DNA of 64,000 nt. Origin: Marsupella aquatica (Eukaryota > Plantae > Marchantiophyta). Shown here piece by piece: positions 1 to 34,472 of the stretch. The position numbers and the translations under genes were made by a program. The notes under the pieces are model-generated. The model was not told the origin of the DNA, did not search any database, and worked only from the letters and a program-made list of their open reading frames with translations. The stretch lies in assembly GCA_973895155.1 (NCBI GenBank), contig OZ316891.1, positions 21,837,168 through 21,901,167 on the forward strand. Direction: 5' to 3'. Each line of letters opens with the position of its first letter. The stretch's first letter is position 1.

Positions 1-220
1 CTTCTGCAATTGGGGGAAATGCCTTTCAGCCGCCATCCAGATAACCCTGATGCACATCCTGATGCTCTTATATGCCCACGACATTATTGTGAGGTCTGTA
101 AGGAGTATCGGGAGGGCATTTGGGATTTTGTCCAATGTCGTAGATGCCCTTGTGCATGGTGTCGTGATGAAGGACCTATAGCAGATAGGCACTTGAGGAG
201 AAGGGTGAGGGGCCGAGACA
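1..220 (+). pseudogene. Fragment of a second EDM2/NSD-type PHD-finger gene, cut by the CACTA-1 terminus at 221
   Basis: ICPRHYCEVC...FVQCRRCPCAWC aligns with ACPLHRCKAC...IVHCARCPTMWH in ORF 10570..11250. The last codons of ORF 10..246 (TLEESEVN) are read from the TIR. The 5' end is outside the window or spliced. Confidence 0.65.
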
Positions 221-249
221 CACTAGAAGAATCCGAGGTGAACTGAGAC

Positions 250-540
250 CGCAATATATGACTCATTTTGGCTCATGTGACTTCATTGTGACTCAACGTG
301 ACTTGACCCACGCTGTGACCCTTGGAGTTGCAAAAGTTGAGACCAAAAAATGGAAGTCACTATTGATACTGGGCTTTGCAACTTGCTTGATACCCATTTG
401 TGACTGATCTGTGACTTTATTGTGGAGTCTAGCCTTGTTTCGACGTGACTGCAATATGACTTCAGCGAGTCACATCGTAAGTCACATACATGACTTACCC
501 GCATTCAACAACGACTAGCGTGTGACTATTTAGTGTCACA
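250..540. repeat. Subterminal short repeats (GTGACT/AGTCAC, both orientations) of CACTA-1
   Basis: Dense TGACT/AGTCA motifs directly inside the TIR at 221. Similar motifs occur at about 16690-16990 and 41400-42015. This layout is typical of CACTA TnpA-binding regions. Confidence 0.7.
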
Positions 541-1075
541 GGAGAGACCAATGGAGACCCTGGCCCGCGTCACACAACAGAACCATTTGGGACTCTATAT
601 ACTCATGTTTATAACTAATAAGGTTCACATGCAAGTTATAACCATGACTAATGAACACAGAGGGACAGTTCATAAGAAGAGAGAGCACTCGACATTACAA
701 TACATAGAAACCTGATGTTCTAACTTTAGAAATATAACACATTGAATACAAGAAATGAACATAGCATGAATGACATCCACATGAAACAAAGCATCATATA
801 AGCAGATCCTACATAAAACATTCATAAGAATTAAACACAATCACAATCTTGCTAAAAAATGAAGATCATTTGAATTCCAATGGAATAGTTTACAATGTGA
901 TCAATGTAATTTAGACAAAACAGGAACTCATAATTGATGACTGTAGGATGAGATAACTGAAAGCACATGCATGATACTATGAATCTCCAAGAGGACATGA
1001 TTCTTGTACTGTTTCTTGACATCTAAAATCTACATAACATGACTCACACTACAAACAAATAATGGCATGACATTG

Positions 1076-4000
1076 TTATGGATCCTCTATGAACTTGCTT
1101 GGCCATAATACCAAAGAACCTGCAGCATCTCCAAGTGTCTTTTGAGGAGGATCATCATTTGTGTTTGGAATGGGAAGGACAGCTTTAGGTTTCACTAGTA
1201 ATGTGACTAACACTACTGAATAACCTGGGGGAATCCTCTTGCCATGGAACGTTGTGGAACCAACCTGCACTCTGGCAAATCCTACTCGTGTTCCACTCTC
1301 ATCAACAGCTAACAAGCCACTTTGTCCCTCAGCATTAGGTGCTTTCCCCACTTCCACCTTAGATCTTTCTGCCAGCACTGTTCTTGGAGGTTTGTATGAA
1401 ACCTTTGACGTGGCTCTGCTCCCACCAGCAGACTTGCTTCGTGTGCGCATGCTTCCTCTCTTCACAGTAGTGAAGCTAGGCTCAGTAGGTTCCTCTGTTA
1501 GGACTGTCACAGTAGCAGGTTCATCACCTGGGAGTGTCATACCAACTAACTCTTTGGTTGGATTTATCTCAACAAGAGGCACACCTGTCATTGAGAATGA
1601 TACATTCTGCAAATCATTTATCTCTGCAATGGAGTCAAGATCTACATAGCATGAATCTGGCTCAATGGTATCATTGTCATGCTTGCTGATATCCTCATTT
1701 GCCCCAACATTGATATCATCCACTCCCTTGCCAATGTCATCCTCATCCAAACATGGTTGACTGCCCTCTGTCAAACAAGTTGCTTGTACAGACTGCAACT
1801 TTGTTGCCTCTAAATTACAGCGAGTATTTGCCAGGTTCTCATACTTCTTCTCTGTAGCACCTGTCTTATTCTCTATGGACACAACAACCACAATATATGT
1901 TACTGAAAATAACACATTCAACAAACAATGTCAATTCAAACTATACATTTAATAATCATATCCCACACAGTTGTAAAGGCCTTACCTTCAAGCCTACATG
2001 TCGTTGGCATGCCAGAAGAGTGCATCGACTTTGCCACCTCAAGTGGTGATGGTGGAACTCCTGCAGAATTGGAATCAATTTTATCTCTCACCGACACAAC
2101 AGCTTCCATTAATGTCTTGAAGTTCACATGGAACAAGTCAGTCAATGAATTCAAACGTTCATTGATCTCTGGAAGACATGTTTCGACAGCCTTCAAACGA
2201 CCACTTATCTCTGTAAGTGAAGATCCACCTCCCTACATGACACAGGGGTATAGGTTCAATCACTCCATATGAAATGTTGGGCAATATATGCACAATCAAT
2301 GTTATATACAGTGTACACCTGAAATTCAACGCAGGTCATTCAATTACCAATCAGAACTCATATAACTTACATGCTTGGAGGATTCAGATGCACCCTCTTG
2401 AGCCCGGGTGTTCACAATTTCAGCCCTCAACTCTTCTTTTGAAGGGCTTTGCCCCAATTGGGCTTTCTGCACATGCATGGCAAACACAAGTTATCGATCA
2501 ATATTCAGGGAACGTACACTAAAAAACAAAGTTTACATGTAGGGACAGTACACTAAAAAATAGTACATAGTGTAGCATAAATTACATAGCTAGGCCATTC
2601 ATTCTTACCAAACGTTTAGCTGTCGGTGCAGTGCCGGTCCTTCCTGTCAGATTAGGGTTCTGAACACTCAACCTGGCCTCGGTCATCTGTGAACTCTTCT
2701 TTTTTGAAGCATCTGTTACAAAATAAGCTACTAACCTTGCCCACACTTTATCATCACAACTGGCTGGTGGAGGCATATCTGGCTTCTCCCCACCTTCCTT
2801 CCAAGCCTTATGCATTCTCCACCTCTCTTGCTTGATAATTTTACCTGCTGTACTCTCTAGGCAACCTATGTCCACGCCATCATCACTGCCCACATAATTC
2901 CATTTGGCAGCAACATTTTCACATACAGTCTTCCAATCTTTTGGATGCTGTTTTTTAAAATTAATAACACTCACATCTAACCAACGCAATACTTCAGCTT
3001 TCAAATCAGCATGCCATCGGTTCTTGCGAGGACACTCAGCATCCACCCATTGTCTCTCATTCAACTTTACGTTCCCTTTCTTTGTCACCTCCCCTCGTGC
3101 ACTGCTCTCGGTAGTACTGGGCGTTGTATTGGCCACCCCTTCATTCACCCTACCTGGGGTTCTGAAGCCACCTGGGAAAATACAATGCCATTCATGCTTG
3201 AGAACTACATATAGCAGAATGGATGACGGCAACATTCAATGCTTCACTTCAAGAAAAATTCTTCAAACATACATACCTGTAGCTCTGCCTGTAGATGCCT
3301 GTGCAGGGACTGCACTCTGAAATTGTTGCGACCCTGGACCACCTGTCCAGCCTAGTACAGGGGCCGGATGATGTCACTTTCTAGGTATGTGTGTGCAAAC
3401 ATATGTACTGAAAACTAAGTACAAACTGTAGGAAAACAACTGAACATTCACCGACATACCTGTCCCCCTTCCGTGCTGCATCTGCATAGGGGCATTAGTG
3501 AATACTTGAGTCGATGGTTCGACTGTCCAACCTGCACACATACATTTTCTATCATTATACATGTGCAGAGTCCCCCCCACGTGAATGGACTCCACATATA
3601 ATGAGTTCTTCCATTGCTGACAAGATCAGACATTACCTGCTCCTCTTCCAGCGTTTGTAGGTACTGAATTTTGATATCCCTGCCAATTACCTTCACCACC
3701 TTCCCAACCTTGTTCATTCCACGACCCACCACCATCCTCCCAACCTGGTTCAACCCATGTCTGTCCTTGTGGACATTGGAACTGATCATTACTAGCATTT
3801 GCCCAATCAGGTTGGGCAGAATCTGCATGCAATGGCAGGTGGACAGAATTTCATGTTGTCTGAATCCAATACATCCCAAACAATGTCAAAAATTGATATG
3901 CAGTCTGAAATTCAGGAGTGCCATGCCTTCACAAAGAACTGGCATATAGATATATACTCACATCCCCACGGTTGAGGTGGACGTCCATACCCACGAGATT

Positions 4001-4783
4001 GTGGGTTTGGACCTGCTCTGCCTCTACCACGGGCATAACCTAGAGCTTGCCCCCTGCCATAGTATTGGGCACCAGCCTGGGATCTACCACTACTACCACC
4101 TCGCCAACCTTGATCAGAGGTCAGCCCCCCCTGCTGGTATGGTGCATGCACAGGCTTCGAAGGCAAAACAGAACTGGCAGGACGCTGCATCACATCACCA
4201 ACTACAATGTCAGGAACTAAGCAAGGTACATATGTGTAGTACTGAACATATGAAACCTCTAAACAAGAGTTTTTAACTCAAAACCTTGTTGGGAAAACTA
4301 CTTACATGTTTCTTTTGGGGCTGCTCTGCAATGTATTCATCTTCATAACCCCCATCCTCATCCATTTCCTCTGGAAAATACTCATCATCTGCATCTTCTT
4401 GTCTAGTGTCTGCACCCACCTGTGCAGCATCAATGTCATCTCCACATTCTGCCATTGTAGGTACGACCTTCTTGCTCAACCTGTCACTCCGACGCACAGG
4501 CCCAGAGATAGTGCTGGTCACCCTTCTTGCGTACTCCTTTTGTTTCTTTGAAAATGCTGTGGCTCTGCGACATTCCAATATGAGAATACAGTCACAATTT
4601 CAGTGCCACATTGAACTATTCATGTCACACAAACTCAGCGGAGGGGTGTAGTTGAGAATCGTTCCCTTACAATTCAGCCACATCCTTTTCCAGATCCAGT
4701 TCTGCGATTTTGGCTTTCACGTATGCTCGTTGTTCCATAGCTTTCCTTTCATACTCACACATCTCTGTGTCACTCTGTTCCAT
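1076..4783 (-). CDS. tnpA: TnpA-like (ORF2) protein of CACTA-1, about 10 exons
   Basis: GT-AG exon model: 4783-4671, 4564-4306, 4184-3962, ~3825-3637, ~3531-3460, 3351-3277, ~3172-2609, ~2466-2372, ~2232-1987, ~1861-1076. The first six junctions were checked and are in phase. Central Ptta/En/Spm-like region (DDKVWARLVAYF...KKSSQMTEAR...NLTGRTG); C-terminal Tnp1/En/Spm-like motif (FHGKRIPPGYSVV...KTLGDAAGSLVLWP). Confidence 0.75.
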
Positions 4784-4939
4784 CCTACTGGACCACAAAA
4801 ACATGTCATCTATGGTCACCCCGTATAACACAATGCAACCACAATCACCAGGCATCCATCCATACATCTGTGTTGCTTCAGAATTACTTTATTACACATC
4901 CTTCCCCTCACTAATGTCTATGCAAACAATTCACATTAC

Positions 4940-7900
4940 TCATGGCACAGGCACACTGTTGGCATCTGCATCTCTGAATTCGCCTCCTTCAGCAAATGCA
5001 TCTACCCTTGTCACAGGAATGAAGTCCCCGCTATCATGAACTACAGGCACTTGGTCTGAACGCCGACGATCAAAGGCACTATGAGAGTGTAAATGAAACT
5101 CAAGGTTTGATCCTTCCATCCGGCGTTGCCTGGCCTGTTTATGACACACTACACGCCAACCTGGGGAGTCTTCCACATCCAGGAAGAAAGCTTGCTCCAC
5201 CTGACTAGGAAACACAAATGGCTCAGACCATTCGGGCAATTTCCCTCTGAAATTGGCCAGCAAGAAACCGTCGTTGTCTCTCTTCATGGTAGCCCTGTTA
5301 CCAAGCCAATCCTGCCGCACCCATGAACCTTTCATAAGAATCACAGGACTGGACACCGCCCCATAGTCCAGAGCCCATATGTCAACTAATTCTCCCACAT
5401 ATCCCATCTCCATCCAGGCCCTGTCGTGATTGTGGCTCTGTTGCTCAAATACAGTGATGAGCCCGCAGTCATTCGTCACCCTGTAGGCACTGTCACCATC
5501 CTTCACTCGGAAGTGATTCCCATATGCTCTCATCCGTTTGTAAGTCTTCACTTTCAGGCTAGGGGCATTAGACAGTAGGTAAACATCTGCATCCATGTCT
5601 GGGTGGGTCTCGTGATGCTCTCTAATTGCCACTCTGATCCACTCCATGAAACCTGGAAAAGTTGTTCCTGCAGTGGGATGGGCCGCCTTCAATGACTCAT
5701 ACTCCCTGAACGAACAACCACACAGCATTAGCTTGGGTAAACATGAACAGGCTGAAGGAGAAAACCACACGAACACAACATTTAAGCTCATGAACTGGAT
5801 TATAGCACATGTATGCACTCACTGTATCCAGGGTTCCATCACCACAGTGTTGTGCAATACAAAGTCATGTGCCAAGTCTCTCATAGATATGGTCAGGTTC
5901 TTTGTGGTTGCAGCCCCTTCCAGTACTTCACCTACCACCCCTTCCTCCTCATCAGAATTCCACACCCTGGTCTTCACATGCTCATATTGTGCTATGTATT
6001 CGGTCAGAAATCCCAGAGTCTCATCCTTGATGTAACCTTTAGCCATGCTTGCTTCAGGTTTGTAATATGTTCTCACGTGACCTTTGAGTAGCTTCATGTA
6101 CCGTTCCAAAGGGTACAACCAACGAGCACTCACAGGCCCAAATTGGTGTAGCTCTTCCACAACATGGACAAGTAGGTGGGTCATGACATCAAAAAATGCG
6201 GGAGGAAAATAAATCTCCAGGTCACACAGCACCTGAGCGACATCTTCTGTCAGTTGTGGGAAGTGTGTTTCATCCCAAACCTTCACACAAATACGACGAA
6301 ACACATCACTGAGTCGCATGATCACAGTACGAACAGGCTTCTGCAACAGGCCCCTCAGGCATAAAGGCAACACCTGTTGCATCAACATATGGTAGTCATG
6401 GCTTTTCATACTACCAAGCTTTCTAGTCATGATATGCTTCTTGAAAGCACTGCCATAGTTTGAAGGAACCTTCAAAGAACTCAACCTCTGCACAAATAGT
6501 TCCCACTCTGTGTCTGTCAGAACATAGGGCGCTTGGTACTTCAAGAGCACATCAGCTCTGTGGGCATGTGGCCTCAACCAAAGATGGGGTTTCATTCCCC
6601 TCTGTTCAAGATCCAATCTCACTGAACCAGTGTCTTTCTCTCCACACAAGAATCTGAGTAGACTCTCACAAATATTCTTTTCAATGTGCATAACATCAAT
6701 GTTATGTTTGCTTGGCTCAAACTCCTGCATCGTTGCAATGCAAAAGCGTCAGGAAATGCCTCAAGTTTAGTCTCTCTCTTCGAAATGAATGCACATGCTC
6801 TGAACCAAAACATGTATCCCAATTAGCATCAACTCCAAGAGGCTTACCCTCCAGTACTTGAGCTCCAAGTCCAATATGCTCAGTCTTTTTACACCATATC
6901 GCTTTATTGGATCACTCACTCCATCTTCCCTGCCCCCTCGTTTGATATAGTCATCCCTCAGTGCTCCCCACTGCCTGATCTCCTCTTTGGTCACTCGTGC
7001 CGGGGGTCCACGTTGCTCAATCTCATTGCCAAAGTGTGCAATCAGTGCCTGTCTTTCTCTGTAAGGGTGATCTGTCTTCAGAAAACGACGATGGCCCATG
7101 TATATCACTTTCTGCAGGGCTCTGGAGTACTCACTGGTGACATTGCGCCCACAGATAGTACAAGCACAATATCCTTTTGTTGTTTGGCCTGATATCATCC
7201 CATGGGCTGGGTAGTCAGCTATAGTCAGAATGACAATGGCTCTAAGGATGAATGGGTTTAACCTCCCAAGCCTCTGTAGGACATCATATGTGAGAACTCC
7301 TTCCTCCCAAAGCTTTCTCAATTCCTCCACTAGGGGAGCCAGAAACACATCTATGTTGGCAGATACAGCACTGTCTGGCCCTGGTATCAGTAGGACCATC
7401 AGAACAAAAAATCGCTTTGTAGTCATCCAAGGAGGAAGGTTATAATTCAAAATAGTTACAGGCCAGCATGAAAATTTGTTGTTCTTGTCTCCAAATGGGT
7501 TTACCCCATCCAATGACAGCCCAAGTCTGACATTCCTCGGCTCAGCAGCAAATTCGGGATACATCTCATCTATGAGTTTCCATTGCCTTGAATCTGCAGC
7601 ATGTCGTTGTAGCCCATCATCACTTTTCTTGTCAGTTGCCCAAGTCATCATCTCCGAGATGGCACGGCTTCTGAACATCCGCTGAAGTCTGGGAATGAGT
7701 GGAAAATGACGAAGTACCTTGGCGGGAACCATAGACTTTCCTGAGTTCCGATACCTGTGCTTCCCACACTTAGGGCATGTCAACGATTCTTTATACTCCT
7801 TTCTGAAAAGAACATGCCCATCAGGACAGGCATGGATCGAATCATAGTTCAATCCAAGATTAGATATGCATCTTTTTGCCTCGTACATGTTCTTGGGCAA

Positions 7901-8671
7901 AATATTACCATCTGGTAGCACAGTTGTTCGCAAGAATGCCAACAACTCAGAAACCAAAACGTTGGGGACATTGTGGTTGCCGCAAATGTTCAGGAACATG
8001 ATGACAAATCCCAGTTTAGAACATTTGCTACCGGGGTACAAAGACTTCCTGCCTTCCTGTATTTGCAGGGGAGAGCCAAACATCCCATCATGCCCAGGGG
8101 TTTCCTGCCCTATCTCAAACTCATCAAGAGGCTCTTCGACAGGGGGCACACTTGCATCTGCAGCCGTATCCTCTTCATTGTCCAGCCCATCATGAAATGC
8201 ATCCAAGTCTTGGAAGATGTCTCTCACCATCTCTTCCACATGAATTCCTTCGTCACGTGGTGCTGCCTGAGCACCATCCCGTTGGAGAGCTGACAACCCA
8301 CAGAGACCAGCTACAACATTTTCAAATGCACCAGGCAGAACCTCACTTGCCCGTCTTGCAGCATTGGCAGCATCAAATTCTAACCTCCACTCCTCGTCGG
8401 AAGAATCTTCCTCTGCAGGATCATTCCAAACTCGATGTCGTGGATCTCTTCCATGAACCGCGATATGCCGCCAAACCTCATTCAGACCCCTGGTACGGGA
8501 TCCTTGGCAGATTGCACAAGGACATCTCATCCTACTGGCTCCTGAAAGTCTGGTTCGTAACCTTTCACGCTGCCAAAGCTTATTATCATGGCGTGATATC
8601 CTTGTGGGATGATGCAAAGGCAGTGCCTGTGCCCTGGGCTGGGTCTGGGGAGGGTGGTGACCAGGGTGCAT
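4940..8671 (-). CDS. tnpD: CACTA TnpD transposase, 3 exons (8671-6848, 6724-5823, 5705-4940), 1163 aa, apparently intact
   Basis: Transposase-associated Zn motif CPCAIC...H; IHACPDGHVLF...CPKCG; EPRNVRLGLSLDGVNPF; ADYPA; HNIDVMHIEKN; MKSHDYH; FPPAFFDVMTHL; WLYPLERYM; EPFVFPSQVEQAFF. Both introns are GT-AG and join in frame with no stops. Confidence 0.93.
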
Positions 8672-9104
8672 TGTAACAGGCTGGGAGCTCTGCAGTCATG
8701 GACAGCAGTGAACAAGGATGCCTAATGGTGGTATTTGTGTTCCATATATCCCTGACTGTATCTGCCAAAAGAGTTAACATAACGTGTACTAAATTCTCAC
8801 AAACCCTAAACCACCCCAAAAGAAAAAAACAGGTTCGCAAGTAGTGTACCTATTGTCAAGTGAATGACACAAAATTTCTAAATGTTGGAGGGTGTCACCA
8901 CCTCCTCCGCTGTCCTCAAATGTACCGCCTCTGCATGTACGTTTACAGTGACACCCCCAGGCAGCAGGAAACAACAATCCGCCAACAGTAAAATAAGCCC
9001 AACTGCCACCAACCATAACAAGGTACATTAGTTCAAAGATCACATTTATTTCAATGATCTGATTTATACAAAAAAACTTGTGTCCAAACTGATGCTACTA
9101 CTCC

Positions 9105-9977
9105 TCACTCTGATTCAGAATCGCTAATGACCCATTCCTCACTTGTTGTCTCATAGTCCTCTCTGTAAGGATCCTGACCCTTCCGTGGCCAGGCCTCAAA
9201 AAGATCATAGTCCATTGGGTTTTGACGCTTCCCAGCTGCTACTGATTCCACAAGCCAAGCATATGAAACCACAAACACATTATGGGACATGACATAAAAG
9301 CGAATGTCTCCCTTCCCAAACTTGCGGCAGGCTTTGGGATATGACTTAGTAATGACATGAGTGGTGTCCTCTGTTATATTCTCCTCCACTGTCCCACCTA
9401 GGTCAAGCACTGTGGACTTGTACACTTTGCACTTAACCTCTCCAATTCCCGCCTCCACAAATACCATGCTCAGCCCTTTCAGAATGGGGGTTGGTTGCTT
9501 CGTCTCCTCAGCCAACATACTCTTCAGCCTTGTAGAGCTCTGTCCTTTGTTGAGTACAGGTCCATATTGGAGATCAGCAAGCCGTGCCTTTGCTTCCCAG
9601 ACTTCTTGTTCAGCCCAAGCTGATGCAGTAGCTTCTTCATCCTCCCACAACTCATATTGCTCAGTATCCTGTACAATCTTATGTGCTATGGAATCTGTGA
9701 TCCAAGAGGCCTCAACTACTTTTAGGCCTTGCTTAGTAATTGCAGAATTCATGTAGGACCATGACCACTTCTTTATCACTGATAGCCATGTCCCTGCAAC
9801 AACATGTGTAGTCTCTGGAGTGATGTCCTGAACTACAGTGCCATGGAGCTCAGAGAATCGTTTCTGTACAGTTGGCCAATGCACTTTGGTCAACCCATGC
9901 TGGCCATGGACCAAAATCGCTCTGACCCCTGTAAACACTGCTGGGTGGTCACACTTTCTACGTTTACCAGGCTCCAT
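9105..9977 (-). CDS. Intronless tandem-BRCT protein (DNA polymerase lambda-type BRCT x2), CACTA-1 cargo
   Basis: Two internal repeats with the BRCT signature: VFTGV...LHGTVVQDITPETTHVV...VVEASWITDSI...QYEL and ILKGL...LGGTVEENITEDTTHVI...VVSYAWLVESV...DYDL. N-terminal KRRK may be an NLS. Confidence 0.85.
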   Translation of the reverse strand: MEPGKRRKCDHPAVFTGVRAILVHGQHGLTKVHWPTVQKRFSELHGTVVQDITPETTHVVAGTWLSVIKKWSWSYMNSAITKQGLKVVEASWITDSIAHKIVQDTEQYELWEDEEATASAWAEQEVWEAKARLADLQYGPVLNKGQSSTRLKSMLAEETKQPTPILKGLSMVFVEAGIGEVKCKVYKSTVLDLGGTVEENITEDTTHVITKSYPKACRKFGKGDIRFYVMSHNVFVVSYAWLVESVAAGKRQNPMDYDLFEAWPRKGQDPYREDYETTSEEWVISDSESE

Positions 9978-10569
9978 GTACACACACCCTACGTGATGAC
10001 AGTGAATTTTGGAAGAATGGGTTCACCTGACAATACAAGGACAACAAAATTCCTGCTTTTTGAGTTGATCTGGCCCACTGGTGCTCAGGTCCGATTTTGA
10101 TAGGTACAAGGGATATGTGAACAATACGTACTAGGCACCTGCACGGATGCAGGACATTGTTTGAATATATACTACAAAATCCATATCCGTGGTGAAATGA
10201 AGTGCAACCAACTTGTCATGGCACATACATATTTTGTTGTAAAGGAGGATACATTCAATGACAAACTTATAGGGCAATTTGATTAATTGCATGCCTGATA
10301 ATTTATACGCTTACAACTTAGAAGTCCTGTTTTAATTTAGCAGTGTGATGAAAGTGTTTATGAAAATGACCACTCAGCCTAAATACTTCCAAGAAGGCTT
10401 GTAAGGATAAGTTTGTATAGGCATGTACCCAGCCACTGACGCCAGAGCACAAGATAAGTGCTGCCTATATAAACTCGCCTACCCAACTCCTTTTCAAAAT
10501 TGGAATCTCTGCAATCTCAAAAAATAGTACATCCACATCAGGTGCACTGTGCATGTACAATGTTCAGCT

Positions 10570-11250
10570 TCACAGCCAAGATATGTGATCTCTCACAGGA
10601 GTGCGCGAGGTAGGATCAATGGCATGGCGATGACAATAAAATATCCATCGATCAACACCATGTGCAGAGTGATCATAGATTTCTCTGTCACAAGCATAAC
10701 CCTCTGCTTGATGATCTTTCAGGCAATGATAGTGCCACATAGTGGGACACCTAGCACAGTGGACTATGTCAGTCCAGTAGTCATCATCATGCTCACCACA
10801 TGCCTTGCACCTATGAAGTGGGCAAGCTGTGGCATGAGCAGGCAAACACTCAAAACAGAAAAATCTCACACAAAAACGGTCTGGACATTTCCTAACATTT
10901 GCTGCAGCATCAACAGAGCCCTCATAGGACCCCAACTTCCCACACTGTGCACACTTAGCCTGCTTCTCCAAACAATCAGTGCACATCCAGTCTCCCTGGT
11001 GTGTTGACGGGAGGCCCACCCCTGGACAGTTGTTTTCTGCAGCAAGGTCAGACTCCGGGTTGAGGTGGAAATGCCTCATGCAAGGGCCCTCACAAATGAC
11101 CAGGCCCCCACCATCGTCACAAATGGCACAACAATGAGCTGCCTTCTGGAAAATCTGACTTGCAGAGAAGTTAGTAGCATCTGCCCCAAGTACACCTGTG
11201 TTTCTCACCTCTGTCACACGCTTTTTGGCTTGAATTTTAGGCCGTGCCAT
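10570..11250 (-). CDS. Intronless EDM2-like composite triple-PHD-finger protein, CACTA-1 cargo
   Basis: CAICDDGG-x-CEGPCMRHFH...C...CTDC; CAQCGKLGS...C-x4-C...CFEC; CPLHRCKAC...CARCP...HYHCL...FYCHRHAID...TPVRDHI follows the plant EDM2 PHD module residue by residue, as I recall that sequence. No other EDM2 domains are present. Confidence 0.87.
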   Translation of the reverse strand: MARPKIQAKKRVTEVRNTGVLGADATNFSASQIFQKAAHCCAICDDGGGLVICEGPCMRHFHLNPESDLAAENNCPGVGLPSTHQGDWMCTDCLEKQAKCAQCGKLGSYEGSVDAAANVRKCPDRFCVRFFCFECLPAHATACPLHRCKACGEHDDDYWTDIVHCARCPTMWHYHCLKDHQAEGYACDREIYDHSAHGVDRWIFYCHRHAIDPTSRTPVRDHISWL

Positions 11251-11261
11251 GCCTGCGCATG

Positions 11262-11405
11262 AGATAGACTCTACAATTTAGCAGACTGCACAGAAAGTAA
11301 TATATATTTAGCATTTAAGGTACAAAGGCATTTAGATAGACTCTACAATTTAGCAGACTGCACAGAAAGTAAAATATATTTAGCATTTAAGGTACAAAGG
11401 CATTT
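11262..11405. repeat. 72-bp tandem duplication just upstream of the PHD ORF
   Basis: AGATAGACTCTACAATTTAGCAG...AAAGGCATTT occurs at 11262-11333 and 11334-11405 with one mismatch. Confidence 0.95.
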
Positions 11406-12020
11406 GCTACTGCAATGAATTGGAATGGCCACACAAGGATGCAGAGCACACATACTTTTGGTATGTTGAGCCCACACACAAAACTGATCCCCTAATACAA
11501 TTTCTCCACCAACACCTCAATTTTAATTGTGGCTATGATTCACCAAAGGAGATCTGCAACAACATTTCATGCATTTGAATCACATACAATAGTCGTGACA
11601 TGTAAAACAGGCATTCTTCGAAGAGGATTGGTATGAAGCAGTGTCATAAGGGTTGAAATTTATACATCCTAAATAGGTTATGATAGTGGCTGAGACAAAT
11701 AAGTGAGGCATAAATCATTTTGCATATTATCACATGGCCCATTAATTCATTCAACGTTGCAATGTTCACCAGGTTAAAGCAGTCATGAAAGCAGTCTTTC
11801 AATAGAGACTTTTATGCGAGTTTGCTAGCCTCTTAAATTAGGATATTTTGCTTAGTGCAGGCATAATAGGATATAAGTTATATACTGTTGACCCTAAACC
11901 CTGGACCCAAAATTGCTCATACATCAAAATTTTAAGTAAATATCCTCTGTGTTGAAGTCAGAGTGTTAAGCTATAGGTCAATGGTATCTGGTCTGTGCAT
12001 GCGGTGTGACAAGTGGTCCT

Positions 12021-12470
12021 CTAGAGCATGTGATCCAAACATGTGTAGACACCAAAGTCACCGGTGGTGGGGTCTAGGAGGGCAGGACAAGTGACATCAC
12101 CAGGCACACTGCAGGATGGCGAGTGGTTCCAAATGATACATTGTGCTCTATGCAAAAATCGGCATCCAAGAGAACGGTCATCCAATTCTGGGCCAGAAGC
12201 CCTACAGGCAGGACAGTCATATTGGCAACTGTGTACACACCCTTGGCACCTAATTTGTGGCGGGTCATGTACAAGAGACACAAATACCAAGGATGTCGGG
12301 AAGGGTACTGAAGCAAGTAGAGGCCGGCTGTAGTTGTTCCTGGAAACAACAGGGTACTCAAAGTACCATGCAGACTGGGCTGGAAGGATCCCAAGTCTGA
12401 CATACTCAAGGCGCAACATCTCTGCCTTGCGTGCAAGTCGCACATGTTCAGCGTTGCGGGTCCTCACCAT
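12021..12470 (-). CDS. Cys/His-rich small protein of unknown family, putative CACTA-1 cargo
   Basis: 149-aa ATG-initiated ORF on the same strand as the other cargo; CQGCVHSCQYDCPAC...C...H...C...H...C...C...C..H. No family recognised. Confidence 0.45.
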   Translation of the reverse strand: MVRTRNAEHVRLARKAEMLRLEYVRLGILPAQSAWYFEYPVVSRNNYSRPLLASVPFPTSLVFVSLVHDPPQIRCQGCVHSCQYDCPACRASGPELDDRSLGCRFLHRAQCIIWNHSPSCSVPGDVTCPALLDPTTGDFGVYTCLDHML

Positions 12471-15442
12471 AAGTGTTGCTTTTGTTGTGATGTCCTCTGT
12501 TCACGTCCTTTGATGAGCAAGGTGAGCAGGAGGTCGACTTGCCTCGCCAACAGCAACCACCTAAACTAATCAGTTCCCACTCAACTACAGGTCATAGTAT
12601 ACACATAGCATGAAACGTGCATAGTACATATTTGATTCTGAGTTTATGAGTTTCCTAAGACAAAGAGCTTGGTGATAAACCCATATTCTCGATGGACATG
12701 TATATCAATCGTATTAAAATCCTGTTTTTTCATCCAGAAAGACCGAAAGTCTCACCTTGCAGGTTGCAGCAGAGAGAAAATTCACTGGTTGTCGTGTTGT
12801 GCAAGTGAACCTCCACTGATGCCCCCGGTGTAGCCCCTCAGATGCAGGTGACACTTACCAACTCCCAAGTTGCCTGGTCTAACAGAAAATGCTTATATCT
12901 TCAGAACTTTATAGAGCAAGTACATGATCACATACTTCTGGATCTATTCATATTTGGAACTCTTGCCAACTACAACTCCCATTATGCACAAGCTCACATC
13001 AACAGAGAAAGATACAGAATGCATACTTACTAGGCTCTAAGCACCTTCACTACCTTGTTGAACCCAGTCCTGAAGTCTTTTCAGCGTGTTTGTTGTGCTG
13101 TCTCCTTTGGCACCCAACACCTTAGTCCTTGATGTAACAGAATGCAATTTTACAAGTTAGATGCTTTGGAACCTTCTATGGTCTTAGCTGAATTGATGTC
13201 ATCGTAAGTGGTGAAAGACAAGGAAGACGAAAGCTGGTTGAAGAGCTGTAGACAACACACTAGCATGAAGTGCTTCAACCAATCCACTGCCAAACGGAAC
13301 TCTTACACAGTCACATTCTTTCAGTAAACAGAAACTCAGTCAAACTTTATAATCAAAGTACAGACTCTGAAGGACCAAAGGAGGATGTTGTGAGTTTCTC
13401 TGTTGTTTAATGTGTTACCCTTCTAGTTTCGAAGTTAGCAAATGCTGAATAATGTGTCTACCAGATCTTCGAAAAGAAGCCCACCACAATTAAGAACTTT
13501 GGTATCTGGGTGAGGTATCAGAGTCATACAGGTTATCCCAACATGTAGAAGAAATATCGTGAAACCACATTGAACATCGCTGTAGAGCAGATGTATGATG
13601 AGATGGCTTCTTGTCATAGAGTTCGGTTCCCTTGCATCCAGATCATCAAGACTACGACAGTCCCTGTCTCTCTGTGCAAGCGAGAAAGTACCAAGCAGTT
13701 CCATGATTCAAAGATCAAGTTCCCCTTGACGTACCGCAAGATTCAACCTCCATCGCGAAAGCTAAAGACGACTTACAAGGCCACCAAGCCCAACACATTT
13801 GTTTGAGTTTCTAGGTCAGGATGCTTAATATAAGGAAATTCAATTTTCACTTCGTTCCCAGCTTCTACTAATTGAATATACACGAGATGGAAGCAAGAAG
13901 ATAAGCCACAATCTAGCATCTTAGCCAAACACATTCGTCCCGACAAAGCAAAACTACAATCACACAGTGCGAGTTGTGTCTGCACCGGCACCCCCAGTGA
14001 GACTGATCAGCATTTGGACTGCATCATTGTCTAGAGCTAGCAGTGGAAGGAATCAACATAGCTAGCAGTGGAAGGTGCAGTGGAGATAGCATGGGGACAG
14101 GGAAGGAAATGCAGGTTCCTTAAGCATAAATTTCCAAAAATGGAACAACAGGAAATGAAGAATAGGCACTGAAGCGGTCAACTAGACAAACGTTGTAACA
14201 AGGCAGCAAGCATTGGATTAAGAAGAAGCAAGGTTTCATCAGCAGAAGCAAGGTTTCATCAACAATGGCATTGTGAGACAAACCACTCCTTACAAATTTC
14301 TACAGACATCCTCCCCACTTGCAGCTTCTCGGCCAGGCTGGATTTCTTGTAAGACAGGTTTCTTGTAAGAAAGATTTCTTGTTTGGTGAGGAAAGATCAA
14401 AAAGCAACTGATCAATGCCTTCTTGTCATCTAGAAGAGCTGGATGCAGCCCTGTCTCACATTTAATGTTAAACTGAATGAAAGACATTATGCGCATGCAC
14501 AAAAGAAAGACATGAATATAATTAAGGTAGGTTTTAAGGAGCGGAGTCAGCAGTCAGACTTAGAAAGTTCAAATTGAAGCGCCATTAGTTTGGCGTGGTC
14601 AAGAGTAAATAAATGTTGGTCAGGGATACTCACCTCTTTTGAATGTATTACTGACTCAGCTAAGCCCAGCTAGACAGAAGTCACTCAGACCCACAAAAAA
14701 GTGAAGATCCACCTCCAAGCCGGAGCTCTATCACTTCAGTAGAGCAGCTTCTGGACGGAACCAACTCTAATCAGCCCCACAGAACACAAATGTTAAGGCT
14801 CCAAGTCAGAGCTCACTTCAGCCGAGGTGGACATCGCAGCTAGACCATTCAGTATAGGCAGTATGGAGCCTGAGACTACGCTCATTGTTCAGAATTGAGG
14901 TGATGAAAGTGAGTTGGCATCAGTGGATACAATGAGAGGGGAAAAAATTCTGACCAAATCACACCTCTATAATCAGAGAGGTTCTATTTCCAGGGAACTC
15001 ATTCATTGACCAGAGTAATATGGCCCACATTTAATTAGACTATGATAGACTCTTCCTCTGCAGACTCAAACTCGAGGAACCCCCACGGATGCCAGCATAT
15101 ACACGAGCTAGAAGCAAGAACACAAGTCGCAATCTAGCATCTTGGCCAAACACATTCTTCCTGGCGATAGTAACTGCAAGCAAGGGGGAGACAGGGAGAA
15201 CAAGGAGAATAGGGAGGCAACTCACAATGGAGCTAGGTAGCTCATGATCAAGCAACTTGCAATTGCAGCAACAGTAGTCTTAGTAGCAAGCGATTGAGCT
15301 CCAGGAAATGACAAACCCGCAGCTGAGTCCTCAACTGACAAAATGTTCGCCACTCGACCCTCCTTCCAACTGCAACCGCCAGATAGTAGGAATAAGATAG
15401 AGAGGTTGCAGCCTTCTCAGTGATCCAATAGCACCTCTCTTA

Positions 15443-15705
15443 CCACCTCCGCTCTTAGCACATCCGCTCGCACCTCCGCTCTCAGCACCTCCTTTGGCAC
15501 CTGAGCCGCTCTCAGCACCTCCGCTCGCACCTCCGCTCTCAGCACCTCCTTTGGCACCTGAGCCGCTCTCAGCACCTCCGCTCGCACCTCCGCTTGCACC
15601 ACCTCCTTTGGCACCTGAGCCGCTCTCAGCACCTCCGCTCGCACCTCCGCTCGCACCACCTCCTTTGGCACCTGAGCCGCTCTCAGCACCTCTGCTCGCA
15701 CCGCC
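15443..15705. repeat. GC-rich minisatellite of 12/18-bp modules (GCACCTCCGCTC / GCACCTGAGCCGCTCTCA)
   Basis: Directly visible tandem units; it generates low-complexity ORFs in several frames. Confidence 0.9.
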
Positions 15706-17748
15706 GCCCAAACTGAAGCTACGTAGCAATCCTCAGCAGTGTGTGACAGAAGCACTCCACTCCAGCTCCACTCCGCTCGAGCTCCACTCCAGCTGCTCTC
15801 CGCTCGTAGCTCCTCGGCCAGACCGGCGGCCAGAGCAGCTCCCAAATTGCAGCTCCTGCCCGCCCACAGCTCCTCCCAGTCCTAGAGCTCGTCGTCCACT
15901 GCAGCTCACCTCTCCACTCCGCAAGCCGGTCGCCCTCTCAGCTTGAATGCTCTAGAGCTTTGAAGGTAAACCTTCAAGCTCCAAGCACAAAACTCCCCTA
16001 CGCGAAGGAACTGCCCCGATCACGAAGCACACTCCCCACTTTGTGAGACCACGCACAATGTGACAACCTTCAGGCACGACGAATGTCCCCGTAATGGACA
16101 AGTGAGTTTTTCTGAAACAAAACCCTCCGAGTTCCCACGCACATTGAACTGAACTTTGCATTCTGCTGGCGTGTTTAAACCCTAAACAAAACCCGCGCAC
16201 CCTAAACTCGTGTCCAAAGGCACACTCCCGCACAAAGCATACCTTAACACTTAGTGACACTTAGTGAACCAAACCCAATGAGCCTCGACCACTTTGCGTT
16301 GACATGAGCCGTTGATACACATGTTAGTACCCTAAAGCAAATTGGACACGACACTTTGTGAGCAAAGATTAAATGAACGCAACTGTAACCTCTTAGAACG
16401 CAACTGTAAATTAACCCTTACACATGCCACTTAGGGAGGGTGGACAAAGAATGGGGGCCAGACACTACTTTAGCCCTGAATTGAAAATGATATCACCCCA
16501 ATATTCTTGTCAAAGTTGCCCATGAACTCTAAGGAATCCATTGAGCAGCATAAGACTTACTATTATAGAGGCAAGTACTCCCATGCACGTTTAATTAGGC
16601 TAGCTAGGATAACTAGCTACAATGCTCTTGACATGAAGACATTTAACTAGTTCTGCAACCCTAAACCCCCATTCCTTCTATGTGCACCTAGTGCTCCCGA
16701 CTCCGCAAGTTGCAAGTCAAGGGTTGTAAATGGAACATTCCGTGATGTCTAGAGTGCATGTAATCCTTCTTGCACTCTATTTCAGAATGCCGTAATGGAG
16801 AGTAGCTTATTCAACTTACATATGACTGCCCTACTAGTGTTACAATTGCTACTTTATCAGAAGTTGTAGGAATGACTTTCACAAATATCCCCCAAAAATC
16901 AGTTGATAAAATGTAACAACAATGACTCCCCTAAACTTGGAGTCATGTATTTTTGAAAGTCTCCCTAAAGTCACAAAGCATAGGGTCTCAAAAGGGGACG
17001 TTTTCTTCTAGTGGAGATATTAGGATCATATGTCGTAAGAAAACTAATTTTCGTGATGTGTTGGTCCGCAAATATGGTGAAGTATGGTTTAACAGTATTT
17101 TAGTTTCACCTGAACCTTTCTTAATACCCACTACCCTTGTTACTAGAATTATCATTTTGATTTTAGTGTAGAACTTATGAGCATGCAAAGTTAACTTCAT
17201 AAGAGCGAACATGCTCCGTGGATGAAAGCACAACATCATAACCCTTTTTTCCATACCTACGGACTATTGCCTCCTTGGCAGCTACCTTGGGTCGAGTTAC
17301 AAAACGAATATCTCCCAACGAGAAAGAAACGGGAGGCTCATCGGAGGGAAGTTTGTTGAGATCCATCTCAATACAAGATAAAAATTGTGCAAGCCCAATC
17401 CTGCCTGTAAACTACATAAGGGTATACAATTGGCTCTATTGAATTTAATACCGCAGTTGCAAATGTTTCTCCAAAGTGAAAAGTCATATGCTGGCGCATT
17501 ATCTCTTTTTGGAGTACATGAATTTTAATAAGGAAAGGATTAGGGAGAGGAAGAATAGGTACTGGTCTGGGCATTATCGTACTATCAAATATTCCATCCA
17601 ACTAATTTTCATTCTAATGACAAGAGATAGAATCATTCAACAAAAAGATCATCCATTTCAAACAAATATCATGCATTGAGTTAACTCTAAGTATATACAT
17701 GCAGATGTTTATCTTAATAGGTTGATCTTCTTTTGAATGAAAATACTA

Positions 17749-21469: not shown

Positions 21470-22530
21470 GCTAACTTCATTGGCTTACGCTTTTAGAGTT
21501 CCCAAGGGTCTATGGTGGGTTTTTATTGCATGACACTCACCTTTCACTTGAAGCGGGATGAGGTTTTGGTTTTTATGCTAACAATTGAGGGAAATCCCAT
21601 GTAATCATGATCCAGTGCAGGATCATCACTGCTTCCTCAACTTTTGTCTAATGCATATGCATTGTGGGAACCCGGACATCTAAAAGGTATATTTAAACAT
21701 GTATGTTAGCAGGGTTTGATAAAGAGATTGTTCATAAACCTTGCCCTTCTTTGTTGTGCAAGAATATCTATATGCACATGTTTGGGGGTCTACAACTTGA
21801 GAGAAGCTAATGGCTATCCAAACTTACTTTTTTGTTTCCAGTATTTTCCTTGTGCTTCTAGATTCAGCTCATGTTCAATGAGCCACACGACCTACAGGCA
21901 CTATTGAGTCCGGATCTCATTCAGGTAATTATTGTCCAACTTCATTCTGGGCTTAGGCCTTTAGAGTTTTCCCAGGGGTCTAGGGTGGGTTTTTATTGCA
22001 TGACACTCACCTTTCACTCGAGGGGGGATAAGGGTTTAGGGTTTAGGGTTTTATGCTAACAATTGAGGGGAAAACCCATGTAATCATGATACAACGCAGG
22101 GCCAACACTACTACCTCAACTTTTGTCTAATGCATATGCATTGTGGGAACCCGGGCATCTAAAAGGTATAACATCATGTATACAGTCAATGTTGTTAGTA
22201 CAGATTTTTATGCTTGCCCTTCTTTGTTGTGCCATGATATATGTGGGTAAATGTCTAAGATTCCACAACTTGACGGCTGCTAATTACCATCCAAACTTAC
22301 ATTTTGTTTCCAGTATTTTCCTCCTACTTCTAGATTTGGCAAATGTTCCAAAAGCCACGTGACCTATAGGCACTGTTGAGCCCGGGTCATTCAGGTAATA
22401 ATCTAACCTCACTTAGGACATAGGGTATTACAATTTTCCCAAAGGTTATAATGTGGTTTCTTCTTGCATGACACTCACCTTAATTTGGGTTTCATGCTAA
22501 CAAATATAAAAGGGTAATAAAACCCCATGT
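21470..22530. repeat. Diverged tandem repeat, about 470-bp period (about 2.3 copies), upstream of CACTA-2 TnpD
   Basis: TTGCATGACACTCACCT recurs near 21526, 21996 and 22464; GTGGGAACCCGG.CATCTAAAAGGTATA recurs near 21664 and 22143. Confidence 0.85.
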
Positions 22531-22635
22531 ATAAACCAACCTAATTGTTTTTTGAGTTCATTTTTTTTAAATTGCTTTATATATGGCCTAATTTTTCCTA
22601 TCATGCCCTACATGCAATGTAATGTGGCAGTGGAT

Positions 22636-25600
22636 ATGTCCTCTTCCTCTGAACTATCCAGTAGTGAGTACTCCTCCGATGACGATATACCCCCTCCTCC
22701 TCAGCCCGAGGTTACTGGTCCTCGTGGTCCACCCCGAAGACTTTGTGACTGCACCAGATGTGTGGGCCAAATTTCTCAAAAATCTTATGTGTGTGCTCAA
22801 CATATTGAGAGATATGGACGTCATAGAGGTCTTACTCCCGGGGCTTCTTCATCCCATATGGTAAGTTTGTTTCAATTGATTGCCGTTCTTTACTGTTATT
22901 TTTAGAGGTGAATCAATGTTTACACATATGGTTTACACATTTGGTTGTTTGTGGGTGTTTGAATGGAATAGGGATCCAGTATGCGTAGATTGGTGACACC
23001 ACCACCCTATGTCCCATCACAAGGAGTTTTAGATGCTATAGGCAATGCACTTTCACAAGCCTTGGGTTTGGGAATTAGTACCAGTCATGGGATAGAAGGG
23101 GAACACCCTCATGTGCCCACTGAGACACGAAGACCCCGGTCCAGGCCCCAATCCAACAGGAGGCCACGAGCACCCAATGACCCATCCAGAACACTAGTTC
23201 AGGGTAGGTGGGGTGTTTGTTCATTCACTGGCAAGTGTGCCTCTATCATCAAGGATTGGGAACCTATCACTCTTGGCTTGCCTTATTTTACAGATTTTGA
23301 TGAGGAGATTGTGGTTTGGGGTAGACGTTGGATTGTGAAAACTTCCACACTTGGAGAGAGACATGGATATGGAGTATTTGCTTGTGAGGATATCATCATG
23401 GATGAGGAGGGTGGGTCAAGTGTTCGTGGTAGAGAGGGTCCTACTTTGTTCCCATACGGTGGACCCATCTACAAGAGAAGACATTGGAACATGATCCTTG
23501 CACAACATCCTGAGTGGAAAACATATGCTCTAGAGATGGATACTTTTGATGGTAGCACTAGAAGGTATAGTGAGCAGCGGGTGATAGATGGTGATCCCAT
23601 ACGTAATGGGAATATTGCTGGTTTCATAAATAGTACTGTGGGGACTCGGCCCAAGCGTAGGGCCAATTGTGAGTGGGTTTTTACTGATGGTCCAATGCCG
23701 GCACCATATGGCACGACATATCATAAGGACCATTGCTTAGTTCTTGCTACTAGGACCATTAGAGCAGGAGATGAGTTATTCACACACTATGAGTGGGATT
23801 AGGAAATCATGTCCTTTATCCTCTTGCACCTATTTTGGACTTCCCATTTACTATTATATATATGGCCTTTGGGCTCATTTTGGAGTAATAAGGTTTTAGC
23901 TCATGCATTTACTTTAATTCTTAATGTCTTGAATGAATGGTGTTAAGTCTATTTTAATTTGTTGTACTTGGTCAAATATACATGAGGAGGTTTTTTGGTT
24001 GTAATGTGCATAGAATGCGCAACCATCTCAACAAATGTTACCACGAAGGTTGAGAGCAACATATCGGGAGATGGGTATGCCAGAAGAGGGAGAACCATCA
24101 GAGGGTGATTCCTCATCAAGTAATGATGTAGGTGGTGCTGATGAGGAAGCCGCACCTCGGACTGATGACCAGGTCATGCATGATCAAGATAGAGCCATGG
24201 ATGACTTCATGGTTGATTGGTTTGGTGCCGATGTTGAGGATGATGTGCCTCACATTGGTCATGAGGTTGGCCCTTCAAATGACCCACGGCCACAACATAC
24301 TCCAGAGGGACAACAACAATGGAAAGAGGCAGAGGAACATGCTCGAACACCTATTTTTGAGGGTGCTCGGTTGAGCCGTCTTTCTGCCATATTGGGGCTC
24401 TTGAACATTCAAGCCAAACACAAGACAAGCAATTCTATCAGACATATTTGAATATTGTCATGACTTGATGTTACCCTCGGAGAATGTGTTGCCAGGGACC
24501 TGGAAGGATGCAAAGAAGGTTCTCTCATCCATTGGTATGGATTACCATATTATTCATGCCTGTGTGAATGATTGCATGTTATTTCACGGGGATACAGCCC
24601 ATATCACAGAATGCACAGTGTGTCATGAGCCACGGTATGAGCCAAACATGCTAACCCAGAAGGTACCAAGGAAAGCAGTTCATTGGTTCCCCATAATTCC
24701 TCGCTTGTTGCACATGTATAGATGTTCTGACTTGGCCGAGTTGATGGTATGGCACAAGAAACATCGTTCGGAGCCCGGTGTCATGCGATTACCAATTGAC
24801 TCTCCTGCTCATAAACATGTGGAATCAACATGGCCAGATTTTGAGCGTGACCCTCGGCATGTGCGACTTGGGTTGGCATCAGATGGAGTTAGCCCTCATT
24901 CACTTGGAGGGAAGGGGAGACCTACATCGGTCTGGCCTGTGGTTCTCATGAATTACAACCTTCCACCATGGTTGTCCATGAAAAAGGGTTTTTTGTTGCT
25001 ATCTTTGATTATCCCAGGGCCAAAGAAGGTGAAGAACATGGACACCTATTTGACATTACTGGTTCAGGAACTCCAGAAATTATGGGAAGGAGTATGGGCA
25101 TATGATGGTCGAAAGACTACAGGGGGTACCCCATGGGTTTTCAAACTCAAAGGGGTTTGTATGTGGACCATGCATGACTACCCAGGTAAGAACTTTGTTG
25201 TTTAAATGCATCATATTCTAATGCATGGTATCCCCTCATTTCCATGTGCTAATCCTAACATAATGTGTGTTTATATGACCAGGATTTGGCTTTGTGAGTG
25301 GGTTGCAAACCCAAGGCTACAAGGCTTGCTCCACTTGTGGCCCAAGCCTTGGTGATGTAGCCAAGTATTCATCACATCTTCGCAAGATTGTTTATCTTGG
25401 GCATACAAAGTTTCTTCCAATGGGACATCAGATGAGGCGTGACCCACTACTATTTTCCTCTATTGATATGCCCTTTGGTGACGAGCGTGATGTACCTGAG
25501 CCAACAACTTTTACACACTGGAAAGACATGGCTGCAAGAGTGGCAGACCCAGAGGATCCCATGCAATTTGACGGTAGTGGCTTGACAAGGTGGAGTATAT

Positions 25601-29049: not shown

Positions 29050-29062
29050 ATATGTAGTAGTG

Positions 29063-30199
29063 AAAGAGCCTCTGATTTGGCCCGAAACAAGGCTCTAAGC
29101 AAACCGAAAAGTGTATAAAGCCCCCTGGGGCTTGAATCTAAACAACAAGTTGTGAAAGCTTGTGTGTACACAAGGTGGGATGAGAACTTGCCAGTTAAAC
29201 GCTCGCGGCTGGGAATAGCCCCGGGATGGGTGGCCTTGCGCTTCGCCTTGTGCTCGCAATTCGGAATAGTCCCAGGATGTGTGACCTTGCACTTCACCTT
29301 GCGCTTGCGACTCGAAATAGTCCTGGGATGGATGACCTTGCGATTCGCCTTATGCGCGCATAGTTGTGTGTGTACACAAAACAAAAGTCGTCGGGCTCAA
29401 AAATGGCAATATTTGCCACTCAAAAGCAGCAATTTCCTTCACAAAAACGGCAACGTTGATGGCTCTCGACCTCCGCAAACCCGTCGCACACAGTTTTGGG
29501 ACATTCCGCAAGCGTCCCTTGACAATAAAACGCTACGAGCACTCAAAATTCCAACAGACCTGTCCACAAAATAGCAGCGCAATACAAGCAGCAACCTTTG
29601 GCCATCTCTTTCCAGATCTAGACTCCGACTCAATCCAGATCCAGATCTAGACCAGATCCAGATCCAACAACGTTCAAGCTTGGCCAAAACCAGATCGAAT
29701 AGCAACAGTGTACTCAAACAATATCTGAACCAACGATTCAAGAAACATGAATCCGCGTCAAACACAAATCCAATTGATTTGAGCTACCACGAACCGTCAC
29801 CGTCAACGACAAACTCAAACTGAGCTTCTGTCCGCACAACAGAGTTTGAAGCTCATGATCTTTCAATGTAATCTCCTCAACAATCGGCACAATGATCCCG
29901 GTCAACAATACCCCATCGATCCCGCACCGATCCAATCACACACGTATGTTAAGCCAATGCACCTTGCACTACTCAAGGAATCCATGTTACACAAGCGGAG
30001 CTCACAGTCACCATAGCCACACTCAAGCTCCTCTCTCTCCAAGGCTCAACATTGAAAGATGACCTTTCAATGCCTCACAAGTGAGAAGTACCCTCTCACA
30101 CAAACCTAACGGAACCTTATCGGCTCATATAGCACACATACCAAATATACGGATCTAGATAGTACGATACACTCTAACACTACCTAGAATGGTGTGACA
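29063..30199 (-). mobile_element. Partial LTR of another retrotransposon inserted into the integrase (mirror of 56656-57792)
   Basis: Begins TGTCACACCATT where integrase coding stops; similar to sequence starting at 60141; contains three repeats of about 60 bp at 29205-29355; truncated by the CACTA-2 TIR. Confidence 0.7.
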
Positions 30200-34235: not shown

Positions 34236-34472
34236 TCAACAATGGCAATGGTGGTGGAAACTGAAGTCCTATCACTAGGCACCACTCTCGGCAAATGATG
34301 AGGTACCTTGTGAAGGGAGTTAGTGTCCACGGTCTTTCCACTCAACAACATAGCCCAGAAAGATGGAGCAGCATGACCAGAATTAAGTGTAGCTCTGGTC
34401 ACACAATCAGCAGCAATCGGTAAAAGGGAAGCCAAACCAGTGGAAACATGTAATGGAGAAGAAGAAGGTCCA

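Follow-up and report, generated by a model that had tools for sequence, protein, structure and literature searches.

A CACTA transposon of the liverwort Marsupella aquatica carries a two-BRCT gene of likely Pol lambda origin

We analysed a stretch of 64,000 nucleotides from Marsupella aquatica (contig OZ316891.1, positions 21,837,168 to 21,901,167; hereafter the window), in which a gene encoding two BRCT repeats lies within a CACTA element of 16.8 kb (221 to 17013). Read along the minus strand, the element consists of its right end, a ribosomal protein L18a fragment (on the plus strand), a Cys-rich frame, a PHD ORF, the BRCT ORF, the TnpD transposase gene and TnpA-like exons, with the following features:

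221..600 (+): left end, with the CACTA terminal repeat at 221-231 and subterminal TGACT at 34 per kb versus 2.3 inside
2582..3235 (-): TnpA-like exon (Transposase_24, below cut-off)
4940..8671 (-): intact-looking TnpD transposase (Pfam Transposase_21, E 2e-70)
8671-6848, 6724-5823, 5705-4940 (-): predicted TnpD exons, joined by GT-AG introns that keep the phase (derived manually)
9105..9977 (-): two-BRCT gene, 290 aa, single open coding exon
9108..9197 (-): acidic C-terminal tail (from sequence and model; low confidence in the model)
9198..9500 (-): BRCT repeat 2, residues 160-260, with Lys182/Val185/Tyr186 corresponding to human Pol lambda Arg57/Leu60/Phe61
9501..9644 (-): predicted long helix (residues 114-137) and low-confidence linker (141-160), from the AlphaFold2 model
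9645..9953 (-): BRCT repeat 1 (residues 9-111), in which the Ku-helix motif is lost and Trp64/Trp71/Trp73, specific to the family, surround helix 2
9954..9977 (-): leader, Pro then a basic patch KRRK (residues 5-8), from sequence
9989..10471 (-): putative own promoter and 5' intron of the BRCT gene, from motifs only (TATATA at 10471, GT at 10428, AG at 10027 or 9989)
10570..11250 (-): PHD cargo ORF of 226 aa that encodes three NSD-type PHD fingers (Pfam), a cassette that we take to resemble the plant EDM2 PHD cassette
13453..13806 (+): ribosomal protein L18a fragment, intron-less, one stop, 145 bits to plant L18a
16700..17013 (-): right end, with the matching 11-bp terminal repeat at 17003-17013 and subterminal repeats at 19 per kb

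The 11-bp end pair is weak when taken alone, as 50 of 300 shuffles yield one; the subterminal motif is enriched 8-15 times at both ends of the element, and a match of a related contig ends at 17013. No 3-bp target site duplication was found at this copy, where the flanks differ. The D, D and E motifs of TnpD fall at about 7516, 7222 and 6112. The score of the L18a fragment falls to 66 bits against the next, non-plant rows, and contig depth indicates that the fragment was amplified along with the element. The Cys-rich frame (12021-12500, minus strand) is open for 159 codons, found no match in Pfam and has a contig depth 2-6 times that of its neighbours. Between 13800 and 16800 contig depth is about ten-fold lower and a Gly-rich repeat frame occurs (15331-15732); this part of the element is likely a subfamily-specific insertion. 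Just outside the left end (window 1-220, plus strand) lies a PHD stub with 45% identity over 33 aa to the PHD cargo, and since this related stub adjoins the element, other elements seem to carry an NSD-type PHD cassette too.

The BRCT frame is open for 290 codons from its ATG, and a further 15 codons are open upstream; based on the stop frequency of the window, the chance of an open frame this long is about 8e-7 per frame. Its stop lies 434 bp ahead of the TnpD ATG (8671) on the same strand, and the stop is followed by an AATAAA at 9050. Pfam BRCT matches the ORF with 50.8 bits in two stretches, and each half alone exceeds the Pfam cut-off of 21.3 (25.5 and 34.2 bits). The two repeats are 23% identical (23/101) and spaced by 48 residues, and the final 21 residues contain eight Asp/Glu. 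The description in the earlier note, of two diverged BRCT repeats, a KRRK motif and an acidic tail in one open exon about 430 bp upstream of TnpD, is therefore borne out, as is its proposal that the BRCT had been duplicated: the profiles of repeat 1 and repeat 2 match each other with a score of 136, which exceeds every host class, whereas their scores against the second repeat of BRCA1-type proteins are 44 and 34. As each repeat finds its best match in the other, they appear to derive from one duplicated BRCT, and this duplication of a single domain is clearer from the sequences than the identity of its donor. The KRRK leader is likely a nuclear localisation signal, and resembles the start of plant Pol lambda. 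No lyase (8-kDa) or polymerase domain and no Pol X Pfam match were found in the ORF. A PHD-BRCT fusion as in BRCA1/BARD1 was also considered and appears unlikely, as the PHD ORF ends in a stop codon of its own and the relatives begin at the same Met; this start Met is common to the ORF and its two closest relatives.

Assignment of both repeats to the BRCT class is based on the Pfam scores, a beta-alpha-beta-beta-alpha-beta-alpha fold and the helix-3 Trp, with Trp92 and Trp241 invariant across nine rows. The AlphaFold2 model (21-row alignment) contains two BRCT folds with a mean pLDDT of 85 and a pTM of 0.49, compared to a pLDDT of 36 for a model built from 3 rows. Given this pTM and the shallow alignment, the model shows no confident head-to-tail packing of the repeats, and superposition of this shallow-alignment model on solved BRCT pairs gave an rmsd of 12-17 A over the two repeats. 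Foldseek matched multi-BRCT proteins in the PDB at an rmsd of 13-20 A, and among viral models only weak ligase-type BRCTs, in neither case discriminating the subfamily, while the Atlas returned generic BRCT clusters alone (<0.9). The predicted complex of two copies of the BRCT protein scored 0.04.

We assessed whether the ORF recurs with the element using nine sequencing runs from seven studies that contain the stretch or part of it, one of which may be its source. Summed contig depth, which is not equal to copy number, was 44-51k (X3) and 74-85k (X4) for the ORF and 32-75k (X3) and 89-186k (X4) for TnpD, such that the ORF depth was within or near the TnpD range in both runs. In run X4, 977 contigs matched a 1.56-kb stretch, namely 453 at >=99% identity, 263 at 95-99, 191 at 90-95 and 70 lower (261 being <95% alike), and this spread fits a diversified multi-copy family. 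Contigs from two other organisms tile the spacers flanking the ORF: those of X5 extend from the TnpD start into the spacer (8605-8940) and from the ORF start into the upstream spacer (9968-10516), and those of X7 from the spacer into the ORF end (8911-9274). Among the matched contigs, no single one covers both the ORF and TnpD. The selection test used the best supported 40 of 97 differences, 36 of which fall in the ORF (16 silent, 19 replacing and one apparent stop, the latter likely not real because its codon is shared with two other changes from the same runs). Third positions account for 22 of these 36 changes (p 0.0006), omega among copies is 0.34-0.44 (about 0.4), and among the four indels listed the ORF has one, which is 3 nt long. 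Copies of the ORF are therefore under moderate purifying selection, and the data support the BRCT ORF being accessory cargo of a multi-copy CACTA family. The earlier note had made its reading depend on the ORF being present in sister elements, which agrees with the multi-copy family and the TnpD-like contig depth but does not extend to the second CACTA of the window, where no BRCT frame was found; CACTA elements of this genome thus do not carry the BRCT ORF as a rule.

A HMMER profile search of 1.84 billion representatives gave 60 hits. Ten stand-alone two-repeat relatives (the top HMMER hits plus three longer cluster members) were recovered, 264-321 aa long and 19-61% identical, along with several fragments. 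The names of the relatives among the 60 hits offered nothing beyond hypothetical or BRCT, and no named host gene of the two-repeat form, such that the ORF is, judging by sequence, the founder of an unnamed family. Of the relatives that carry a name, those from Riccia and Mesotaenium are nearest. Lower-ranking hits comprise ORFs with a single BRCT (two of them from Riccia fluitans), N-termini of Pol lambda type and proteins with several BRCTs. The stand-alone single Pol-lambda-type BRCT ORFs (P0029, P0058 and P0035, including the two from Riccia fluitans) retain the full Ku-helix motif in 3/3 cases, and may represent a pre-duplication stage and better candidates for an end-joining decoy. Word-index searches returned 2 and 4 family proteins, all from Logan. 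A metagenome scan with A1 produced 172 pattern hits, 0 of which were confirmed, and one with P0171 produced a single 1,404-bp locus, in which the 464 bp 3' of the ORF, too short a flank to reveal a TnpD, had no match to the window at E <0.05. Two near-identical Mesotaenium models on one scaffold (P0020 and P0176) comprise a Pol-lambda-type BRCT and no polymerase domain, and are either split gene models or true stand-alone copies.

To place the donor of the BRCT, domains were compared in a set of 150 cut from the family hits and 17 of 104 plant Pol lambda hits, with 11 near-copies excluded; four fragments were then dropped, leaving 146 rows for FastTree. Among the 17 non-plant rows classed as Pol lambda type, three have a polymerase domain and the rest are labelled by likeness, one of these not being identified. 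A Pol lambda profile scored best for 21/29 family domains, in a comparison whose other BRCTs had been picked because they resemble the query, several plant classes being absent. Conversely, the median score on the family profile was 41 bits for 20 streptophyte Pol lambda domains, 46.5 for other domains of Pol lambda type and 21 for 77 other BRCTs. The best single host domain for both repeats was a Pol-lambda-type BRCT of Mesotaenium, and this Mesotaenium row, which has no polymerase domain, scored 82 bits on the angiosperm Pol lambda profile and joins it in the tree (99/97). The segment from beta1 to helix 1 is 30 residues long in 37/37 Pol-lambda-type rows and has a median of 30-31 among family domains, against 28 for other BRCTs. 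A MAP[K/R] start is present in 85/104 plant Pol lambda proteins and in two of the three closest relatives, from which the third and the ORF differ by one or two letters. For repeat 2 the margin was small, with a BRCA1-type profile score of 104 versus 114 and 73 on two Pol lambda profiles. In column bootstraps, Pol lambda was preferred to BRCA1-type for the single ORFs (<0.002) and for repeat 1 (p 0.004 and 0.06), and not clearly so for repeat 2 (p 0.10 and 0.23).

Phylogenies varied in resolution. In the FastTree phylogeny 28/29 family domains adjoin streptophyte Pol lambda (0.936, 0.838), and in a careful 107-row tree the family and Pol lambda form one group that excludes the 47 other BRCTs (93/89, with the bootstrap not settled). 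A 49-row tree places family and BRCA1-type domains in one unresolved group. AU tests of the sister group rejected none of streptophyte Pol lambda (p 0.27), all Pol lambda (0.32) and BRCA1-type (0.60), and rejected the TopBP1 control (0.002). In the PDB, the best sequence matches were BRCA1, REV1, Rtt107 and Rad4; the human Pol lambda BRCT was absent from matches at E 1 with shallow queries, and with deeper queries scored 29 bits, below REV1 (38) and BRCA1 (33-36). In the PDB fold comparison human Pol lambda ranked 18th (Z 11.0 versus 14.8 for PARP4). The Pol lambda resemblance claimed previously, for which profiles and a phylogeny of BRCT subfamilies had been proposed, consequently holds for the profiles, loop length, leader and the two larger trees (146 and 107 rows), while the 49-row tree, the AU tests and the PDB comparisons by sequence and by fold fail to distinguish Pol lambda from BRCA1-type BRCTs. 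Taken together, these comparisons make Pol lambda the likeliest donor of the BRCT, a conclusion we hold with good confidence, and suggest that the Pol lambda leader and BRCT were probably captured and then duplicated in tandem.

We also examined the residues by which BRCTs contact their partners. A phosphate pocket, defined as Ser/Thr-Gly in beta1 plus Lys in helix 2 (PMC4728184), was found in 0/29 family domains versus 34/77 other BRCTs, indicating that the protein is not a usual phosphopeptide reader. Helix 1 of human Pol lambda (Arg57, Leu60) docks on the Ku bridge, and a dead enzyme whose BRCT is intact leaves less gap filling than a knockout does (PMC12056208), the Pro-basic N-terminal patch of Pol lambda touches ligase IV (PMC13649775), and the Arabidopsis Pol lambda BRCT binds XRCC4 and LIG4, with Arabidopsis Pol lambda also implicated in excision-site repair (earlier work cited in PMC4444747 and PMC12707071). 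At the Ku-helix positions, repeat 2 has the conservative Lys-Val-Tyr and repeat 1 His-Thr-Val. The strict helix-1 motif is present in 4/28 family domains (2/16 of repeat-1 type and 2/12 of repeat-2 type), compared to 20/20 streptophyte Pol lambda and 1/75 other BRCTs. Position 57 is Arg/Lys in 9/28 family domains versus 16/75 unrelated BRCTs and 20/20 streptophyte Pol lambda, and Thr at the equivalent position in P0002 (54% identical); P0001 and the ORF keep the conservative Ku-helix motif and the Pro-basic leader. Across nine two-repeat rows, conservation is lower in helix 1 (0.29-0.32) than in helices 2 and 3 (0.39-0.43), and among repeat-1 domains Trp64 is present in 16/16 and Trp73 in 15/16. 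The scarcity of the motif (4/28) and the conservation of helices 2 and 3 suggest that this copy could make the classic Ku contact, which is not a family-wide trait. Accordingly, the end-joining role envisaged in the earlier note is weakly supported, by repeat 2 of this protein but not by most of the family.

If the protein does derive from Pol lambda, the chance that it still engages the Ku/XRCC4/ligase IV complex seems about even. It could then serve, where the CACTA element makes breaks, as a mimic that lacks the polymerase, with repeat 2 and the Pro-basic leader binding in the manner of Pol lambda and the Trp-rich helix 2 of repeat 1 holding a second partner. Blocking would be favoured over recruiting, since a BRCT protein that has no catalytic domain would displace Pol lambda. 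With Pol lambda displaced, fill-in at the excision site would be hampered, and more breaks would be left for copying from the sister chromatid, by which the element would be restored. We consider a mimic of this kind, hampering fill-in at transposon breaks, to be plausible at somewhat less than even weight. The fuller scenario, in which a CACTA lineage took the Pol lambda docking module, doubled it and long kept it as an inhibitor or redirector of NHEJ that raises copy number through homologous repair, is one we would advance only tentatively, and would make the ORF a repair counterpart of anti-silencing cargo.

A protein of the same origin could alternatively have taken up a new job as a chromatin or anti-silencing adaptor that works with the PHD cargo and TnpA/TnpD, having abandoned end joining. 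Such a change would account for conservation on helices 2 and 3 (Trp64, Trp73) and not on the Ku helix, and the genomic setting is compatible with it, as the element bears NSD-type PHD fingers and the neighbouring CACTA has a SET-domain frame. There are precedents: VANC, from MAIN-like proteins, shows anti-silencing reuse by transposons (PMC13547354), and TET/JBP cargo was likewise repurposed (PMC12730594). However, no chromatin-binding feature was found in the ORF, the BRCA1-type phosphate pocket is missing, and the conservative Ku-helix motif and Pro-basic leader are held by both the ORF and P0001. We regard the adaptor as the next likeliest reading after the mimic, well below even odds.

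The remaining readings dispute the origin or the function itself. A BRCA1/BARD1- or REV1-type protein that reads damage phospho-marks or binds damage-signalling proteins would agree with the top PDB matches (BRCA1, REV1, Rtt107, Rad4), the unresolved 49-row group and the AU result (p 0.60, not rejected), and plant BRCA1/BARD1 combine PHD and BRCT, as the adjoining PHD and BRCT ORFs do here. That PHD ORF is, however, NSD-type; the pocket occurs in 0/29 family domains against 34/77 other BRCTs; each repeat matches the other (136) rather than a second repeat of BRCA1 type (44, 34); the linker has 48 residues versus 17-27 in BRCA1-type pairs; and the two-repeat models superpose at an rmsd of 12-17 A, which makes this reading improbable. 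It would be similarly unlikely, and if anything slightly more so, that the ORF is a passive host fragment of the Pack-CACTA style, functionless for the element. The broken ribosomal-protein fragment in the same element and the only moderate selection among copies are what such passivity would predict, but open frames of 264-321 aa persist in ten relatives at 19-61% identity, silent changes are in excess, and the 60 hits yield no named host gene of two-repeat form. A Pol lambda origin with a retained link to break repair is thus the reading that we prefer.

Compared with known systems, the protein resembles the plant Pol lambda N-terminus in its best-scoring host class for both repeats, beta1-helix1 length, Pro-basic start, missing phosphate pocket and the conservative helix-1 motif retained in repeat 2. 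It differs in having two BRCTs and no Ser/Pro-rich region, lyase or polymerase domain, in a longer, Trp-rich helix-2 region in the family (35 vs 31 residues), in a helix-1 Arg that the family does not conserve, and in being encoded within a transposon. Two BRCT folds per chain are shared with tandem BRCT readers (BRCA1, MDC1, TopBP1 7/8), unlike which the ORF has no Ser/Thr-Gly plus Lys pocket, a long helix-plus-loop linker, repeats from one domain and no confident head-to-tail packing. Its closest named relatives, KAL2607684.1 and KAL2652599.1 of Riccia fluitans (75 and 58 bits), are likewise Pol-lambda-type BRCTs lacking a polymerase, but are uncharacterised proteins with one repeat and the full Ku-helix motif. 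The element itself is like CACTA/EnSpm transposons (Pack-CACTA; TET/JBP-bearing fungal EnSpm) in its CACTA ends, subterminal repeats, TnpD Pfam domains, TnpA-like exon and captured host fragment, and unlike them in that the cargo is an intact, selected gene of DNA-repair type. On this evidence, both the gene and its family are real, and Pol lambda is their likely origin.

Cut-and-paste elements need their host to mend the breaks that excision causes, and the accessory genes known from transposons mostly counter silencing. Cargo genes in CACTA-type elements are already known (PMC12730594). Our literature search found no BRCT-carrying transposon and no transposon-encoded BRCT linked to end joining, and BRCT was absent from the main text of three recent surveys of transposon proteins. 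A selected and doubled Pol-lambda-type BRCT as transposon cargo accordingly appears to be new. Carried and selected in this way, it would provide a direct handle on whether elements steer the choice of repair pathway, through a protein small enough to test and for which a contact helix is predicted. Should the repair role not hold up, the family would still be an example, so far unnamed, of how a domain is captured and doubled by elements that gather PHD and SET domains as well.

The rest of the window holds further mobile elements. In the second CACTA (22510-27402, plus strand), a SET-domain frame is open for 276 codons and scores 27.1 bits in Pfam, above the cut-off; it precedes or interrupts the TnpD region of that element, after a Cys/His exon resembling a transposase-associated domain, and its sequence makes a transposon-borne histone methyltransferase possible. 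Two 8.26-kb segments (29050-37308 and 49547-57805) form an inverted duplication of a Ty3-like element with 99.66% identity, which is either a very recent duplication or an assembly artefact. Within the Ty3-like element, a frame at 32210-33436 weakly matches C-5 cytosine methylase (E 0.028).
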